Assembly (NCBI GenBank): GCA_965214045.1
Contig: OZ243935.1
Location: 2,316,994 to 2,380,993 of the forward strand
Direction: 5' to 3'
Origin: Candidatus Poribacteria bacterium
GTDB lineage: Bacteria; Poribacteria; WGA-4E; WGA-3G
Length of the DNA stretch: 64,000 bases
Shown here piece by piece: positions 1,548 through 52,504 of the stretch. How positions within the stretch are numbered: the first letter of the stretch is position 1; each line of letters opens with the position of its first letter. The notes beneath the pieces are model-generated. The model worked only from the letters and a program-made list of their open reading frames with translations, ran no database searches and was not told the origin of the DNA. The position numbers and the translations under genes are program-made.

Positions 1548-2258
1548 ATGATAATGTCAGCAGCAAATTTGAAACAGCGGATACATAACGGAGAACTCGT
1601 CTATGGCGCTAACGTCTCTATGGCAGCATCTGCCGACGCGCTCGTTGCCAAAGTCGAAGAGGGCTACGATTTTGTCGCCGTGGATAGCCAACACTCTCCA
1701 TACAACGAGGATCGGCTCGTTGCCTTCTGTAACATGGCAAATGAGTTGGGGATTCTGGTCAACTTTCGGATTAAGCATACCCGACACGCGTATCTCATTG
1801 GCAACTGTCTTGATTTAGGTCCCACAGGCATTGAGGTGCCACAGGTCGAATTAGATGAAACCGTGAACGAAGCAGTTGCTGCTTTCTACTATCCGCAGCA
1901 GGGGCTTCGAAGTTGGGGCGGTGCTGCCCGGGTGAATTCCGAAGGTAGAGAACGGCTTGAGTACGCCGATTGGTGGAACTCCAATGGCATCCTCTGGATG
2001 CAAATTGAATCCATAGAAGCCGTCACACATGCGCGATATCTCGCTAAGCCGGGGGTTGACTGTCTCTCCTTCGGTCCCGCTGATCTGACGTTCAGCATTG
2101 AGAGCCATCCAAATCATGCACTCCAAACCGTGGATGCCTGTGTTGAATACGTTGCAAGAGCTTTGGAGGGGACTACAACCGCTGTCTGCTTTAGGAATGG
2201 TAATCCGAGCACCCGCCAAAAGTACGCCGACATGGGTGTTACCGTCTTTTTGGAATAG
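1548..2258 (+). CDS. HpcH/HpaI-family aldolase (2-keto-3-deoxy sugar-acid aldolase class)
   Basis: The core MIMSAANLKQRIHNGELVYG...VAVDSQHSPYNEDRL...W(M)QIESIEAV resembles HpcH/HpaI aldolases. The ORF-track start at 1416 is probably too far upstream. ATG 1548 or 1554 is preferred, with a GAGGG Shine-Dalgarno just upstream. Confidence 0.65.
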   Translation: MIMSAANLKQRIHNGELVYGANVSMAASADALVAKVEEGYDFVAVDSQHSPYNEDRLVAFCNMANELGILVNFRIKHTRHAYLIGNCLDLGPTGIEVPQVELDETVNEAVAAFYYPQQGLRSWGGAARVNSEGRERLEYADWWNSNGILWMQIESIEAVTHARYLAKPGVDCLSFGPADLTFSIESHPNHALQTVDACVEYVARALEGTTTAVCFRNGNPSTRQKYADMGVTVFLE

Positions 2259-2260
2259 TA

Positions 2261-3592
2261 ATGCTGAGTTACGGATTGGTAAGCACAGCAATAGCGGAAG
2301 ACCGAGAACGACTGCTTGAGGGCATGCGACTGTTAGCAGAAGTCGCGCACAAACACGGTATGCCCATAACGTGGGCGGTCGATACCAAATCTGCTCCAGT
2401 CGTCGCGAAGCTACTCACAGCATGGCATACAGAGAACGGCGACGCGCCATTGTTGATGCTCGACATCGGACAGATCTGGGAAACAAATTGGGAGCGGGCA
2501 AGGAACGCAAATCCGGGTGCCAGCACAGAAGCCATGGCATCGCATCTCGTCACGATGCGAGAGAAGTTGCCAGAATATATAACAAGGGAACGGGAAAGAC
2601 TCACGCGTGCAATGTCTTGGGCAGACCCCAACATCGCAGGAGCAGTCTTCAAGAATGATACTTTTCTACGGGTACTTGAACAGACTGGGTTCCGAGGACT
2701 TTGGGGTTACCACTGGAGTCAGTCGGATGTTGATGACACAGACCCGCACGTTCCCGAAGTTGAAGTTTCCGATCGCGGAGGTTTTGGATGTTTCTACCCG
2801 CTTGAGGCTTCCGCGTCTCTTGATGCTATTGTCACGCGAGGCACCCCTGATGTAGATAGCGCACAATCATTTGAAAAGATTGTGGGTATACCTTACCATA
2901 CCGCTGGTCATCTTGCCGAAGAGACACAAAATCTCCGCGCGGCACTCTTAAACGGAACAGCGCAACAACATTATGATGTCTATGTAGGAAGCACAGCGTG
3001 GAATCAATGGCTTGGTTATGTGGAACATATCGACCCACTTACCGTTGCGCACCTTGGGCAAGAGGGATTGGAACGACTCGATGCCTACTTCGCACACGTC
3101 GTTGGGATTCAAGACACAAAACCGTTACTTCTTTCTCAAATGGTTGACGATTACATTAAACGTTGCCAGAAAACCGAACCGACAGCTGTTATAGAAACGA
3201 GTACAGAGATCCAAGAGGAAACTGCTAAGCCGAAGTCTACGTTAAAAATGTTTTACTACGACGCCGCATGCGAATTCACTTTTGTTGAAGGTGCTATGGA
3301 TCCCATTGAAATCAAAAACTATGCTGGTGAACGGGTGTTACAATCCGAGGCGCATAAACCTGTCCTAACCGGTTTTCTACCGACGCGACATCGGACGCAG
3401 CTACATATCGCTATTGTGATAGAGTCAACGAGGACGATGCCTTATGGGATGGCAGTGTGGGGCGACCACGAAGGTTTACAATTAACCGAGTCTAACGTCG
3501 ATGATGTTAGATGGATAGGAGAACATTCGCTTTTTATACGCCTCACATTACAATCCGGAAAGAACGAATTTAGCGTTAAACTGACAATTTAA
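2261..3592 (+). CDS. hypothetical protein, likely co-transcribed with the aldolase
   Basis: 443-aa ORF that starts 3 nt after the aldolase stop. No recognisable family. Cytoplasmic-looking. Confidence 0.45.
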   Translation: MLSYGLVSTAIAEDRERLLEGMRLLAEVAHKHGMPITWAVDTKSAPVVAKLLTAWHTENGDAPLLMLDIGQIWETNWERARNANPGASTEAMASHLVTMREKLPEYITRERERLTRAMSWADPNIAGAVFKNDTFLRVLEQTGFRGLWGYHWSQSDVDDTDPHVPEVEVSDRGGFGCFYPLEASASLDAIVTRGTPDVDSAQSFEKIVGIPYHTAGHLAEETQNLRAALLNGTAQQHYDVYVGSTAWNQWLGYVEHIDPLTVAHLGQEGLERLDAYFAHVVGIQDTKPLLLSQMVDDYIKRCQKTEPTAVIETSTEIQEETAKPKSTLKMFYYDAACEFTFVEGAMDPIEIKNYAGERVLQSEAHKPVLTGFLPTRHRTQLHIAIVIESTRTMPYGMAVWGDHEGLQLTESNVDDVRWIGEHSLFIRLTLQSGKNEFSVKLTI

Positions 3593-3612
3593 TCTTCTGA
3601 TGATGGTGCGCC

Positions 3613-3648
3613 ACGACGACTTCTTTCATTGGTGAAGTCGTCGTTTTC
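3613..3648 (+). terminator. rho-independent terminator-like hairpin
   Basis: acgacgacttc / gaagtcgtcgt stem followed by TTTT, directly after the stop of the 2261-3592 gene. Confidence 0.45.
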
Positions 3649-3651
3649 GGG

Positions 3652-3739
3652 TTGTGAAGGAAGTGTCGAGGACACACGGTCTTAATAGTGCCAAATTGTG
3701 AAGGAAGTGTCGAGGACACACGGTCTTAATAGTGCCAAA
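3652..3739. repeat. perfect tandem duplication, 2 x 44 bp
   Basis: The unit ttgtgaaggaagtgtcgaggacacacggtcttaatagtgccaaa occurs at 3652-3695 and again at 3696-3739. Confidence 0.85.
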
Positions 3740-3801
3740 AACGTAAGTCCAAATAACGTGCCGGGCTGGATTACGATGAGGATCGTCAAAATCCTAACCA
3801 G

Positions 3802-3828
3802 CCTGACCGAACCGCAAGGAAAATTAGG
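3802..3828 (+). repeat. orphan copy of the CTGACCGAACCGCAAGGAAAATTA core motif (no start codon follows)
   Basis: cctgaccgaaccgcaaggaaaattagg. The same core recurs about 165 bp downstream, in front of thrC. Confidence 0.8.
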
Positions 3829-3889
3829 AATAGGGGTCGGCAGTCAGTAAGCAGAGGATGGGGTTGTAAACCTCGTTTGTGAAGCCTGT

Positions 3890-3998
3890 AGTCCGTAGTG
3901 AAATGGAGGGGTTTTTGCTTGGGCGTTTCCTCCAGATACACGCAAAGGCACGCTAAGGTTCAGACTTGCCTGACCGAACCGCAAGGAAAATTAAAAAT
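3890..3998 (+). promoter_or_regulatory. long-form leader repeat ending in the core motif, upstream of thrC
   Basis: Contains gtagtgaaatggaggggtttttgcttgggcgttt...acgcaaaggcac...cctgaccgaaccgcaaggaaaattaaaaat followed by ATG. Homologous segments occur at 20911-21008 and 44155-44272, with a reverse copy at 54442-54466. Confidence 0.6.
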
Positions 3999-5231
3999 AT
4001 GGAAAAAGTATTAGGGCTCAAATGCCGTGAATGTGGTGAGAAGTATCCCAAGGAGCCTCTTCACGTTTGCGAATTCTGTTTCGGGCCCCTGGAAGTAGAC
4101 TATAACTATGAAGAGATACAAAAATCTGTTTCAAGGCGTTCAATAGAAAACGGTCCACAAAGCATGTGGCGTTATGCAGATCTGCTGCCGATAGATGGTG
4201 AACCGACAGATGGCATTCACACTGGATTCACGCCGCTCGTTCGGGCTAAAAATCTTGGGGACGCCCTTGGTGTCAACGAACTCTATATCAAAGATGACAC
4301 CGTCTGCCATCCGACCTTTTCCTTCAAAGATCGGGTTGTGGCGGTCGCCTTGAGCAAAGCAAAAGAATTCGATTTTGATACTGTTTCTTGTGCCTCCACT
4401 GGCAACCTCGCTAACGCTGTAGCCGCACACGCTGCTATCGCGAAATTGAATTGCTTCATTTTCATCCCCGCAGATCTCGAAGTTGGGAAGATCGTTGCGT
4501 CCCTCGTTTATGGTCCTACAGTTGTCGGTATCACCGCTACTTATGACGAGGTCAACCGACTCTGCAGTGAAATTGGTGGGGTCTATCCGTGGGCATTTGT
4601 TAATATCAACATCCGTCCTTTCTACGCTGAAGGCTCGAAAACGCTCTGTTTTGAACTGATCGAACAACTCGGTTGGAAGGCACCTGCACATATCGTCGCA
4701 CCTGCCGCTGGTGGTTCTCTTATCACAAAGATTGGCAAAGCTTTAAAGGAATTCCACATTTTGGGATTAATAGATAAACCGAACACTAAAATACATGTCG
4801 CCCAAGCCGAGGGTTGTGGACCCATCGTCAATACATACAAAGAGAATAGCGATTTTGTGAAACCTGTTAGACCGAACACAATCGCTAAATCGCTTGCTAT
4901 TGGAAACCCCGCAGACGGCATCTATGCTGTTGATACTGTCCGGAATTCCGGCGGCGCCGGCGAACACGCCACCGATATTGAAATCGTGGATGCGATCAAA
5001 CTTCTTGCTTCCACAGAAGGTATCTTCACCGAAACCGCGGGCGGTGTAACACTCGCTGCCGCGAAAAAATTGATAGAGAGTGGGCACATCGGACCCGATG
5101 AACCAACGGTTCTTGCCATTACAGGCAACGGACTCAAAACCGTTGAAGCACTTGAGAACAAAACAGATACATCACATATCATTGCCCCGCAACTCAACGC
5201 TTTTCGGAAGTTGATGACGGAAATTGGTTAG
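3999..5231 (+). CDS. thrC: threonine synthase
   Basis: PLP-enzyme motifs including FSFKDRVV (Lys in the PLP site). N-terminal zinc-ribbon-like CxxC...CxxC typical of long threonine synthases. Start set at the ATG that directly follows the core motif. Confidence 0.8.
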   Translation: MEKVLGLKCRECGEKYPKEPLHVCEFCFGPLEVDYNYEEIQKSVSRRSIENGPQSMWRYADLLPIDGEPTDGIHTGFTPLVRAKNLGDALGVNELYIKDDTVCHPTFSFKDRVVAVALSKAKEFDFDTVSCASTGNLANAVAAHAAIAKLNCFIFIPADLEVGKIVASLVYGPTVVGITATYDEVNRLCSEIGGVYPWAFVNINIRPFYAEGSKTLCFELIEQLGWKAPAHIVAPAAGGSLITKIGKALKEFHILGLIDKPNTKIHVAQAEGCGPIVNTYKENSDFVKPVRPNTIAKSLAIGNPADGIYAVDTVRNSGGAGEHATDIEIVDAIKLLASTEGIFTETAGGVTLAAAKKLIESGHIGPDEPTVLAITGNGLKTVEALENKTDTSHIIAPQLNAFRKLMTEIG

Positions 5232-48776: not shown

Positions 48777-49030
48777 AATTTAAACACCTATTTGCTGACT
48801 GCGTATCCGTGAGGTACGCTCAGCATAGGGGTGATGTATACTTTACAGTTTTGTTTTTGCAAACGGAGCGAGTATCTACGCTAAATGTAGCAAAATCTAT
48901 GCCAATCCTTACTAATTTGTAAAGGGCGCGAAAAAACTTGCTATTTTCCCATATTTGTTGTAAAATTTTAAGATAGACGATTGGATCCATCGTGATAGGC
49001 AATCTCAGTACTAATGAGGAGGATACTTTC

Positions 49031-49264
49031 ATGGAAGTGAGAATTGAATACTGCACCGCCTGAAACTACCAGCCGCGGGCAGCCAGTTTGGCGGATGCCT
49101 TAAAACAGAAATACGGTACGGCAGTTAAGACGGTCGATTTGATCCCCGGTAGTGGTGGGGCTTTTGAAGTCTCTTTAAACGGAACACTGCTTTATTCAAA
49201 GTTAGAAACCGGACAATTTCCGACGACAGAGCAGATAACAACCGCGATGGACGCTGCGGCATAG
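49031..49264 (+). CDS. SelW/Rdx-family selenoprotein with in-frame TGA (Sec) in a CxxU motif
   Basis: Not in the ORF track. ATG 49031 is preceded by a GAGGAGG Shine-Dalgarno. Translation reads MEVRIEYCTA-U-NYQPRAASLADALKQKYGTAVKTVDLIPGSGGAFEVSLNGTLLYSKLETGQFPTTEQITTAMDAAA, with TGA at 49061-49063 and TAG stop at 49262-49264. This is the Rdx/SelW pattern (CxxU near the N-terminus; GxxGxFEV...K block). Confidence 0.65.
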
Positions 49265-49344
49265 CCAGCGTCTCTGGAAAGGCGGAAGTGGTTATAGTAC
49301 GCAAGCCTATAGAGGTTTGCGGAACAATACTTCCGCCTTTTTTA

Positions 49345-50160
49345 TTATTCTACTGCAACGATTGCAATCTTCCACCGGTCTGCTTGCTGAATGAGGGCAT
49401 CGGCATCCATCACAAATGTTCGCCGTGCTTCGACTGCTAACACACTCGCTTTAACTTGATGCAGCACCTCAAGTGTTTGCATGCCCACCGTCGGCACATC
49501 AATACGAAAATCGTGGCTCTCAGCGGCGGCTTTCGCAACAATGACACCTTGCCTTCCTAAGTTTCCTCCACGCTGAATAGTTGCATCTGTCCCTTCAATG
49601 GCTTCCATAGCAAGGACAATCTGATTTTTAACGACAACTGTTTGACCAATATCCATATTTGCTATCTGACGGGCGGTACTGATACCGAGTTCAATATCTA
49701 TCCATTGGCTTGCAGTGGGTTGTCGAGTTGTTAGGACGCTGGGTTCCGGGAGAAGGTGCTGGAGGTACTGATCTTGGGTGAGGATGGTAAGTCCGGCGGA
49801 TTCAAGGTAGTTAAGTGCGGCGTTGACGATTACGGAAGGTTTTTCGCGTCGGTTTTGTACGAGGATTTTAATGGTTGTTGTGTCAATTTGAAAGGGGCGA
49901 AGGAGAATGTTTTTTTCGACTTTCCCGATGATCACAACCTCTTTTACGCCTGAATTAAGAAGCGTTCGGGTGATCTTTTGAATCTGACCGACCCCATAAG
50001 TGTGAAGTTCGCATGTGATTCCGGCAAAGCGTTGCGCGTCGGATTTTGTTATTTGGATAATAACGGGTTGTCGTTCATGGACAACAACAGCGTGTGCTAA
50101 TAGCACCGGCAGTTCACCTGCACCTGCAATAATACCCAATTTTTCCACTTTTTTAGGCAT
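49345..50160 (-). CDS. lpxI: UDP-2,3-diacylglucosamine hydrolase LpxI (DUF1009)
   Basis: 271 aa. The N-terminus KLGIIAGAGELPVLLA and overall pattern match the LpxI family. Follows lpxA in the same orientation. Confidence 0.65.
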   Translation of the reverse strand: MPKKVEKLGIIAGAGELPVLLAHAVVVHERQPVIIQITKSDAQRFAGITCELHTYGVGQIQKITRTLLNSGVKEVVIIGKVEKNILLRPFQIDTTTIKILVQNRREKPSVIVNAALNYLESAGLTILTQDQYLQHLLPEPSVLTTRQPTASQWIDIELGISTARQIANMDIGQTVVVKNQIVLAMEAIEGTDATIQRGGNLGRQGVIVAKAAAESHDFRIDVPTVGMQTLEVLHQVKASVLAVEARRTFVMDADALIQQADRWKIAIVAVE

Positions 50161-50234: not shown

Positions 50235-51059
50235 CTAACCACTCGGAGTGCGGTTCGGTTGACTGAATCCTATGCCACGTTTCGAGGTCTCTATAAATGT
50301 GAGTAAATATTCAACTTCCGGTGTTGATTCGAGCGTTTCTTTGACTCTGGCAACGGCGTGCTTGAGTGGTAACCCTGATCGGAACAAGATGCGGAATGCC
50401 TTCTTTAACGCCGCGAGCGTTTCAGGTGTAAGTTGTGACAAAGGGTTAATCCGTGATGTTCGGATACCGATGCTGTTCAGGCTCCGAACACGCGCGGGTT
50501 GTCCGGCGGAAAGGGCAAACGGTGGGATATCCTGCACGATTTTTGAGAAACCCCCTGCCATTGCCATTTTGCCGACGCGCACATATTGGTGCAGTGCCGC
50601 ATGTGCTCCGAGTCGAACATCATCTTCAATCACGACATGCCCCGCAAGCGAGACAAAGTTCGCCATGATTATTCTATTGCCGACGATGGTGTCGTGTGCG
50701 AGATTAACCCAATTCATCAGCAAATTATTATCCCCGACGATAGTTGCTTCCTCTTCAAAAGATGACCTGGAGATAGAAACGTATTCGCGTAGTATATTGC
50801 GATTCCCGATTTTCACGTAGCTTCGACAGCCCCCGTACTTCAGGTCTTTAGATTCGTTACCGATGGTAGCACCGAAGAAAATTTTACATTCTTCGCCGAT
50901 AGTTGTCCACTTCTCAATCTGAACATGCGGTCCGATCACGGTGCCGCGCCCTATATGAACATCGTCACCGACAAGACTGTAGGGGCCAATCTGAACCCCC
51001 TCTTCCAACGTTGCTTTTGGAGAGATAATAGCCGTAGGGTGAATGTTGGTTTCTAACAC
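50235..51059 (-). CDS. lpxA: UDP-N-acetylglucosamine O-acyltransferase LpxA
   Basis: Left-handed beta-helix hexapeptide repeats. The ETNIHPTAIISPKA N-terminus is as in LpxA. Likely GTG start, preceded by GGAGG, about 20 codons downstream of the track start (coordinate within 1 nt). Confidence 0.8.
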   Translation of the reverse strand: MLETNIHPTAIISPKATLEEGVQIGPYSLVGDDVHIGRGTVIGPHVQIEKWTTIGEECKIFFGATIGNESKDLKYGGCRSYVKIGNRNILREYVSISRSSFEEEATIVGDNNLLMNWVNLAHDTIVGNRIIMANFVSLAGHVVIEDDVRLGAHAALHQYVRVGKMAMAGGFSKIVQDIPPFALSAGQPARVRSLNSIGIRTSRINPLSQLTPETLAALKKAFRILFRSGLPLKHAVARVKETLESTPEVEYLLTFIETSKRGIGFSQPNRTPSG

Positions 51060-51217
51060 AGATGCCCCTCCGTTTATATTGGCAGTTGGCAGTCGGCAAT
51101 CAGCCGTCGGCGGACCCACTTTCGGTTTTCTGGAACTCTCAAATCAAATAGGGAACTGCTGGTCGTTAGGAAACCCTCTTTGCTGAAAGCCGAAAGCCGA
51201 AAGCCGAAAGCCATAGA

Positions 51218-52504
51218 TCAGGCAGATGCTAATACGATTGATAGTTCTGCCTCTGTAGCGAGTTCGTCTCCTACGTAAACGCGACCTTCGATGCGTGCAA
51301 TTCTGCTTCGTAGTTGTGCGACCTCTATTTCCAGTCGGAGTTGGTCCCCCGGAATGACAGCGCGTCGGAATGTTGCCTTGTTGATTGAGCGAAAATAGCC
51401 AAGTTCACCTTCCTTACCGATGTCTCGAAGCACAAGCCATGCAGCGAGTTGTGCAAGGGCTTCAATCTGTAGCACACCCGGCATCACAGGGCGCGTCGGG
51501 AAATGCCCCTCAAAAATTGGTTCGTTATAAGTCACATTCTTAATGCCTACAGCGCGCTTTTTGCTTTCGTATTCAATAACTCTATCGACCATGCACATCG
51601 GATGCCGGTGCGGCAACACTTCATAGATATCCATTACCTCAATCGGTTCTTGAACTGGTACCTGTTGGAGGTGGCCCGCTTCAGCGAGGGCTTGCACAAA
51701 TTCCGCATGAAACATATGTCCAGTCCGCATCGCGAGAACATGTGCTTTCGGTAGGTGTCCAGCTAAATAGAGATCGCCAATCAAATCAAGGATTTTATGT
51801 CGGACCAACTCGTCTTCAAACCGCAGTGGTGTGTTGGGTTCACCTGCGGTATTGATAACAACGACGTTATCATAGTTTGCCCCTTTCCCGATGCCGAGTG
51901 CCTGTAGGGCTTCAATTTCATTTTCGAAACAGAAACTCCGTGCTGGTGCGATATCGTCAGCATACGATTCTCGGGTTATTTTGAATGTTGCTGTTTGTGG
52001 TTTCGTCTGCGGATGTGCATAAACGAACGTCACCTCTAAAGCGTCGGCAGGTAGCAACACGAGTTGCTTATCCCCTACAGAAAGCGCGAACGGTTCCGTG
52101 ACCTCAATAAACTTCCGTGGGGCATCTTGTGAGACAAGCCCTACTGCTTGGATATTTTCGACGTATGGTGCCGCACTCCCATCAAGCCCAGGAGGTTCTG
52201 ACGCGTCAAGTTCCACCGTCGCGTTGTCAACGCCGAGACCGCCGAGTGCTGAGAGGATGTGTTCGATGCTGCTAACCGTTGTATCACCGTTACGTAAACT
52301 GGTACATCGTGGCAGAATATCTGCCCAGTTTTCCTGACATACTTTCACTTCAGGCGCACCAGCCATATCCACACGTCGGAAGACGATGCCGGAATCTGCC
52401 GGTGCTGGTTTCAAGGTTAACGTCACGGATTCCCCTAACATTAACCCTTTTCCTGTCATTGTTATTTCGTTCTGAATTGTTTGCTGTGAATCAGCTTTTG
52501 CCAT
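51218..52504 (-). CDS. lpxC: bifunctional UDP-3-O-acyl-GlcNAc deacetylase / 3-hydroxyacyl-ACP dehydratase (LpxC-FabZ fusion)
   Basis: The N-terminal LpxC domain has an HKxL block. The C-terminal hot-dog FabZ domain contains ...MCMVDRVIEYESKKRAVGIKNVTYNEPIFEGHFP.... Confidence 0.85.
   Translation of the reverse strand: MAKADSQQTIQNEITMTGKGLMLGESVTLTLKPAPADSGIVFRRVDMAGAPEVKVCQENWADILPRCTSLRNGDTTVSSIEHILSALGGLGVDNATVELDASEPPGLDGSAAPYVENIQAVGLVSQDAPRKFIEVTEPFALSVGDKQLVLLPADALEVTFVYAHPQTKPQTATFKITRESYADDIAPARSFCFENEIEALQALGIGKGANYDNVVVINTAGEPNTPLRFEDELVRHKILDLIGDLYLAGHLPKAHVLAMRTGHMFHAEFVQALAEAGHLQQVPVQEPIEVMDIYEVLPHRHPMCMVDRVIEYESKKRAVGIKNVTYNEPIFEGHFPTRPVMPGVLQIEALAQLAAWLVLRDIGKEGELGYFRSINKATFRRAVIPGDQLRLEIEVAQLRSRIARIEGRVYVGDELATEAELSIVLASA

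Follow-up and report, generated by a model that had tools for sequence, protein, structure and literature searches.

A probable SelW-like selenoprotein gene with an in-frame UGA codon and a predicted bacterial SECIS element in Candidatus Poribacteria

The window analysed here is a stretch of 64,000 nucleotides (nt) from a Candidatus Poribacteria bacterium (contig OZ243935.1, positions 2,316,994 to 2,380,993 of the forward strand), of which about 84% lies under open reading frames (ORFs) of at least 200 aa when genetic code table 11 is used. It contains a short gene of the Rdx family, related to selenoprotein W (SelW) and called selW-like below, whose reading frame is interrupted by a TGA at codon 11 and closes on a TAG at 49262-49264 (Table 1). 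Read through the TGA, this frame gives MEVRIEYCTA*NYQPRAASLADALKQKYGTAVKTVDLIPGSGGAFEVSLNGTLLYSKLETGQFPTTEQITTAMDAAA (77 codons), or, with selenocysteine (Sec) written as U, MEVRIEYCTA-U-NYQPRAASLADALKQKYG...GSGGAFEVSLNGTLLYSKLETGQFP... The initial annotation had proposed a Shine-Dalgarno (SD) sequence GAGGAGG ahead of the ATG, the in-frame TGA and a read-through product of 77 codons, all of which lie exactly where it had put them. It had also described the frame as split at the TGA; the table 11 ORF list indeed holds, at this locus, only the 58-aa piece that follows the TGA (49088-49264). Our reading, to which we give a probability of roughly 0.92, is that the whole frame is the gene of a 77-residue SelW-like, Rdx-family selenoprotein of Candidatus Poribacteria, with UGA decoded as Sec.

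Table 1. Coordinates of the selW-like gene, its predicted selenocysteine insertion sequence (SECIS) and flanking signals in the window.
Feature	Positions	Strand	Description and basis
SelW-like / Rdx-family selenoprotein gene (predicted)	49031-49264	+	77 codons, then TAG; translation, hidden Markov models, PDB relatives, fold
Shine-Dalgarno GAGGAGG	49016-49022	+	8 nt 5' of ATG 49031; sequence
C-T-A-U redox motif	49052-49063	+	Cys8 TGC (49052-54) to Sec11 TGA; in register with CTQC (2fa8) and CEPC (MIEN1 2ljk)
In-frame UGA, predicted Sec codon (codon 11)	49061-49063	+	TGA kept in 82/82 loci and in 3 more distant loci
Predicted bacterial SECIS stem-loop	49077-49100	+	-10.2 kcal/mol; conserved pairing, synonymous constraint, bacterial SECIS criteria
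SECIS 5' arm	49077-85	+	GGGCAGCCA
SECIS apical loop	49086-88	+	GUU
SECIS upper 3' arm	49089-92	+	UGGC
SECIS bulge	49093-95	+	GGA
SECIS lower 3' arm	49096-49100	+	UGCCU
Weak sigma-70-like promoter candidate	48938-48966	+	TTGCTA, 17 nt, TAAAAT; about 65 nt 5' of the ATG; 9/12 consensus matches
Intrinsic terminator	49278-49343	+	13-bp outer stem (49278-90 with 49328-40), inner hairpin, U-run

By sequence, motif and fold, the selW-like product belongs to the Rdx/SelW-like family. With Sec written as Cys, the read-through protein matches the Pfam Rdx hidden Markov model (HMM; PF10262) with 89.3 bits (E 1.9e-25, profile positions 1-71 of 74, threshold 22.6), whereas the ORF that follows the TGA scores 53.8 bits alone; the ten codons that precede the TGA thus carry about 35 bits of the Rdx signal. 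Two NCBIfam models are also matched, namely TIGR02174 CXXU_selWTH (77.9 bits, cut-off 34.2) and NF041051 'SelT/SelW/SelH family (seleno)protein' (90.8 bits, cut-off 88). Eight Rdx proteins of the PDB match the product (2fa8, 2ljk/MIEN1, 2ojl, 3dex, 2p0g, 2obk, 2oka and mouse SelW 2npb), and in the alignments C8 and the TGA position fall on both cysteines of CTQC (2fa8, 2ojl) or CEPC (2ljk). The comparison with SelW-like proteins suggested in the initial annotation therefore shows the TGA in register with the second cysteine of CxxC in solved Rdx proteins.

The fold was modelled by AlphaFold2 on P0001, a 94%-identical homologue with W at the Sec position. The model (predicted local distance difference test 96.2, predicted template modelling score 0.85) has the order beta1, alpha1, beta2, beta3, beta4, alpha2, with a strand at residues 2-8 followed by a helix at residues 14-31, which puts the CxxU motif at the end of beta1, before alpha1. 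It superposes on 2fa8, 2ojl, 2obk, 2p0g and 3dex with template modelling (TM) scores of 0.88-0.95, about 0.9-1.4 A root-mean-square deviation and 27-32% identity, and on mouse SelW and MIEN1 with a TM score of 0.79. When the PDB is searched with Foldseek, the top 23 matches are all Rdx-family proteins; a Plasmodium protein (4o32) comes next, and then thioredoxins, at about 0.6. Motif and fold together suggest that the product may act as a thiol/selenol oxidoreductase.

The conservation of the TGA was assessed in relatives collected by a contig scan with one genome per species, which gave 253 relatives, the best 80 of which were fetched and inspected. These 80 are 78 metagenome-assembled genomes (MAGs), 73 titled Poribacteria and 5 'uncultured bacterium', and 2 Bacillaceae isolates; 5 other loci bring the set to 85, with protein identities ranging from 48 to 99%. 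The relatives were retrievable by a C-terminal YSKLETGQF pattern, the other search pattern having a W that implies TGG and being unable to match TGA. As only the YSKLETGQF pattern can have found the loci, the retrieval is unbiased towards TGA. Codon 11 is TGA in 85/85 loci, that is in 82/82 of a first set and in 3 of a distant clade at 52-55% identity. A Cys or a Trp codon at this position was seen in none of the 85, and the Cys-for-Sec orthologue with TGC or TGT that the initial annotation had envisaged has not been encountered among them. The window itself is, over 6.2 kb, 98.7% identical to OZ246979.1, the 5.89-Mb chromosome of a Candidatus Poribacteria MAG.

This distribution bears directly on the idea that the TGA could be an artefact of sequencing or assembly, or a nonsense mutation that arose recently, in a Cys-type gene of one strain. 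TGA is one base away from both TGC and TGT, and the window seems to come from a metagenome-type assembly. Such an origin is refuted by the comparison: all 85 loci, which were assembled independently and include complete chromosomes from long reads, have the same TGA, and the codon is followed by a conserved hairpin whose synonymous sites are frozen (see below). The probability left to an error or a recent mutation is negligible.

The public annotation of the family splits into two kinds of entries. In a protein search (P0001-P0038), the relatives appear either as full-length calls of 76-77 aa that read C-x-x-W, or as truncations of 57-58 aa; P0018 is a separate case, frame-shifted and with a spurious N-terminus. 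The truncated entries (NCBI, JGI), named 'SelT/SelW/SelH family protein', 'selenoprotein' or 'selenoprotein W-related protein', are without the CxxU motif, and reach 64 aa in the distant clade. In the DNA behind the C-x-x-W calls, the W codon is TGA; these calls stem from short contigs (e.g., L001 146-376, which is not translatable under table 11), and are consistent with gene calling in the style of genetic code 4, in which TGA is read as Trp. That annotation often overlooks or shortens bacterial SelW-like genes has been reported before (PMC4607533).

The truncated entries raise the possibility that the gene proper consists of the 58-aa ORF starting at TTG 49088, the TGA being a true stop and the codons upstream of it being non-coding, a mini-ORF or a pseudogenised N-terminus. 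The table 11 list gives precisely this ORF, the database entries of 57-58 aa begin at the same point, and its own 53.8 bits still lie above the Pfam Rdx threshold. Its product, however, would be without strand beta1 and without the family-defining CxxU/CxxC motif, and its TTG is not preceded by an SD, whereas ATG 49031 has a strong one. An SD-like motif within 20 nt 5' of the ATG is found in 81/81 related loci with sufficient upstream sequence, the ATG lies exactly 30 nt 5' of the TGA in 78/78 loci, and the 10 upstream codons are in frame in 85/85 and raise the Rdx score as described above. Among their residues, Ile5, Glu6, Tyr7 and Cys8 are invariant although their codons vary synonymously (ATT/ATC/ATA, GAA/GAG, TAC/TAT and TGC/TGT, respectively). 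Pairwise codon differences amount to 6384 synonymous vs 5213 non-synonymous on the 5' side of the TGA, and to 51178 vs 35986 on its 3' side. The ATG, the SD, the invariant residues and the similar substitution pattern argue that the sequences on either side of the TGA are translated in one and the same frame, and a gene restricted to the 58-aa ORF is highly unlikely.

A stem-loop that could serve as the SECIS lies within the gene, shortly after the UGA (Table 1). When only the sequence 3' of the UGA is folded, this hairpin is part of the unconstrained minimum free energy (MFE) structure of 61/62 distinct homologue sequences (median -10.4 kcal/mol), and, with its core pairs enforced, 62/62 sequences reach -7.5 kcal/mol or lower. 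Its three core G:C pairs form in 59/59 aligned sequences, and the loop A-G-U-N-U is invariant except for N, which is U, C, G or A. The model of bacterial SECIS (bSECIS) elements set out in PMC13188914 (Fig. 2) has an apical loop of 3-9 nt, an upper stem of 4-16 bp, an MFE of -7.5 kcal/mol or lower, a G as the first or second loop nucleotide, mostly within N1-G-[G/U]-N-N2 with N1 and N2 paired, and a UGA-to-loop spacing of 16-37 nt. Our hairpin agrees with this model on every point: a GUU loop closed by A:U, a 4-bp upper and a 5-bp lower stem, a spacing of 22 nt and -10.2 kcal/mol.

Independent of the folding, the codons under the hairpin are nearly frozen. Ala18 is GCC in 76/76 loci, Ser19 AGT in 78/78, Leu20 TTG in 75/77 and Ala23 GCC in 75/75, while Ala, Ser and Leu use 3-6 codons each elsewhere in the gene. 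Codons 16-23 have a normalised synonymous entropy of 0.127, vs 0.647 for codons 24-74; they form the lowest 8-codon window of the gene, and 0/100,000 random codon sets were as low (p < 1e-5). Codons 16-23 are under constraint at the RNA level, at the place expected for a SECIS.

The initial annotation had also proposed a SECIS-like hairpin, made of CCGC (49073-76), 14 nt and GCGG (49091-94). It is present in the window but is not conserved in relatives: position 49075, a G here, is an A in most of them (CCAC), including the 98.7%-identical locus L003, so that the pairing is broken, and we reject this hairpin as a functional element.

The loci of the distant clade (L083 9962-10195, L084 and L085 9962-10195) have the in-frame TGA within YCTS-U-GYLPRAASLAEK, at the 52-55% identity given above, in a ComEC / Rdx / homoserine dehydrogenase neighbourhood, together with a hairpin CCA-GUC-UGG as in close relatives. 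As both the SECIS and the AASLA peptide motif are present in this clade, their association extends far outside the close Poribacteria relatives.

Concerning the machinery, SelA and SelB have been reported to co-occur in most sponge-symbiont bins (Slaby et al. 2017, PMC5649159). In the same work (Table S4), the SelA/SelB/SelD COG counts are 2/1/1 for bin70, 4/1/2 for bin44, both of which are Poribacteria bins, and 2/1/1 for Ca. Poribacteria WGA-3G; locus L055, which comes from WGA-3G, bears a TGA-type selW-like gene. Poribacteria are also listed among the phyla with Sec-containing group 4 hydrogenases in a 2026 survey (PMC13582414). The source genome would thus be expected to hold selA, selB, selC and selD, and Sec machinery is probably present in the phylum.

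Outside the phylum, Rossellomorea aquimaris (locus L081, JAIVLN010000005.1) has a cluster at 1713-4694 in which a TGA-type SelW-like orthologue (2992-3234, plus strand) is flanked by a selD of divergent sequence and by selA (3294-4694; PF03841, 478 bits); the layout is the same in Pseudalkalibacillus sp. Hm43 (L082). The selD of both loci has an in-frame TGA of its own (...GG-U-GCKIGP...), which in R. aquimaris falls at the active site (...SKGG-U-GCKIGP...). No selB was found within the 6.2-kb locus of R. aquimaris.

It could also be considered that the UGA is read through, but as an amino acid other than Sec: Cys, by a SECIS-dependent tRNA of the tRNA(ReC) type, or Trp or Gly, by near-cognate read-through or by reassignment. 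Sequence analysis alone does not distinguish which amino acid is inserted, the automated calls from short contigs do give W at codon 11, and a tRNA(ReC) with SECIS-dependent recoding of UGA is on record in literature cited in PMC13582414. The W calls nevertheless fit code-4-style gene calling, and the position is Cys or Sec in the Rdx family, never Trp. Reassignment throughout the genome is excluded, since TGA serves as an ordinary stop elsewhere in the window: among its 43 long ORFs (at least 200 aa), 9 end on TGA, 20 on TAA and 14 on TAG. Decoding as Cys would predict some change of TGA to TGC or TGT, but 85/85 loci keep TGA, and SelA, SelB and SelD have been reported for Poribacteria (PMC5649159). 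Decoding as anything other than Sec is therefore very unlikely, and we infer from the sequence that Sec is inserted at codon 11.

Several observations weigh against Sec decoding and have to be set beside the evidence above. The inspection of relatives covered the best 80 of 253. No selA, selB, selD or tRNA-Sec gene was found in the window or in the fetched Poribacteria loci: ARAGORN detected 0 tRNA genes in the window and none in 81 related loci, motif scans of the window for SelA, SelB and SelD gave nothing real, and tblastn with the SelA and SelD of R. aquimaris matched neither the window nor any of the Poribacteria loci. This absence from the window is expected, as it represents about 1% of the genome, and the support for Sec machinery in the phylum comes from published COG counts. 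As to the SECIS, its covariation is thin, with one compensatory C:G to G:C swap, in two related Bacillaceae sequences, and one wobble change; the pairs of the lower stem differ between clades and break in some. The element overlaps the conserved AASLA peptide, which is the reason why synonymous sites were tested. Rfam gave no SECIS or other relevant family, either at the gathering threshold on the whole window or with E up to 10 on 48900-49400. Finally, when 49055-49120 is folded with the UGA included, the MFE structure is a different one, in which AAACU pairs with AGUUU (z = -0.05).

We discarded the AAACU/AGUUU fold: where column 28 of the alignment departs from U (to G, A or C), column 4 never shows a compensating change, and the variation fits instead the variable 'N' of the SECIS loop. 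The Rfam matches to mir-4657 and ARRPOF near the gene are noise, that to mir-4657 reaching 18.9 bits against a cut-off of 73 and lying on the terminator.

With Sec decoding as the preferred explanation, expression of the gene could proceed as follows. The mRNA would be monocistronic, with its own SD and a strong terminator. Once a ribosome is at the UGA of codon 11, the stem-loop located 14-37 nt downstream, with its apical G-U, would recruit SelB-GTP-Sec-tRNA(Sec), and Sec would be inserted at residue 11 in place of termination. The product would be a minimal thioredoxin-like fold with Cys8-x-x-Sec11 placed between beta1 and alpha1, and Cys8 and Sec11 would most likely cycle between the selenol/thiol and the selenenylsulfide, making it a small thiol-dependent oxidoreductase.

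The gene is preceded by a spacer of 254 nt, up to a divergent TonB-like gene. A promoter scan of the region gave 2 sites vs 1.2 expected by chance, and the site listed in Table 1 is accordingly a candidate only. Downstream, the terminator folds at -37.3 kcal/mol (z = -6.4; 0/200 shuffles equally stable) and is probably common to selW-like and to the convergent lpxI, which is followed on the other strand by lpxA and lpxC-fabZ. The LpxI neighbour is kept in 59/82 loci, but is missing in a Poribacteria clade of 67-73% identity, in some divergent loci and in both Bacillaceae; as several clades are without it, the selW-lpxI adjacency is probably not functional. At the whole-window scale, Rfam at the gathering threshold gave no match, and a scan for other TGA-interrupted ORFs, on which no homology searches were made, gave no convincing second selenoprotein candidate.

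Several features of these neighbourhoods may be recorded in their own right. In the clade of 67-73% identity (L058-L076, e.g., L063 1-6222), the neighbours are a lactonase, an enoyl-CoA hydratase, a cupin and a protein with a Laminin_G_3 domain. In the window, a single 428-aa ORF on the minus strand (51218-52504) fuses LpxC (PF03331) and FabZ/FabA-like (PF07977) domains, and clusters with lpxA (50235-51119) and lpxI (49345-50160). For lpxA, the GTG start given in the ORF list probably makes the N-terminus about 30 residues too long.

One may further speculate that the SelW-like protein belongs to the core selenoproteins of the whole phylum Poribacteria, that no Cys form ever takes its place (78/78 species-level genomes inspected), and that its role lies in selenium handling and not in general antioxidant defence. 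Such a role is hinted at by the Bacillaceae orthologue, which has the same SECIS and lies between a Sec-containing selD and selA, and by the solved relative 2obk, deposited as a 'putative Se binding protein'. In that case, SelD could be using selenium that this protein has delivered or reduced. We consider this proposal, taken as a whole, unlikely.

The Poribacteria selW-like gene is systematically mis-annotated in public databases, either truncated, without the catalytic CxxU, or with Trp at the Sec position. A corrected annotation would give these bacteria, a major group of sponge symbionts, one more selenoprotein in their proteome. The gene could also serve as an independent marker that Sec decoding is retained across Poribacteria, in agreement with the reported enrichment of SelA/SelB in sponge symbionts. 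What is known of Sec decoding or of the Rdx family is not changed by these results.

When compared with proteins of known structure, the product shares its fold and the position of its redox motif with the Cys-type Rdx proteins (Atu0228 2fa8, 2ojl, 2obk, 2p0g, 2oka and 3dex), but these have CxxC and about 100-108 residues as deposited, instead of CxxU and 77 residues. Mammalian SelW (2npb) and MIEN1 (2ljk) are likewise Rdx proteins with CxxU (SelW) or CxxC (MIEN1) after beta1, but are more distant, as reflected in their lower TM score (0.79) and in a phmmer E of 6.8e-4 for SelW. Among the curated families, PF10262, TIGR02174 and NF041051 (SelTWH_Campy, an equivalog) are all matched over the full length above their cut-offs; for NF041051, the 90.8 bits are barely over the cut-off of 88, which indicates a related subfamily and not a close orthologue of the Campylobacter protein.

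As for the SECIS, the predicted element resembles the canonical bacterial type (E. coli fdhF) in being a stem-loop within the gene, 3' of the UGA, with a G then a U in the loop and an A:U pair at N1:N2. It differs in being short, with a lower stem that contains a 3-nt bulge and varies between clades. Eukaryotic SECIS elements differ in their location in the 3' untranslated region, in their architecture and in their protein partners.

Bacterial SelW-like selenoproteins with CxxU have been described since 2005 (surveys by Zhang and Gladyshev: PMC1088965, PMC1794560, PMC2398784), and few Cys homologues of them are known in Sec-decoding organisms (PMC1794560). Like them, the Poribacteria gene encodes a small protein (about 75 residues) that has CxxU near its N-terminus; its predicted Sec is encoded by UGA, and the predicted SECIS follows directly, within the gene. 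There is no essential difference. Across the 78 species-level genomes inspected, only the Sec form was encountered. Our literature search found no description of the SelW-like family in Candidatus Poribacteria. The Poribacteria gene fits the known SelW-like selenoproteins in every respect.

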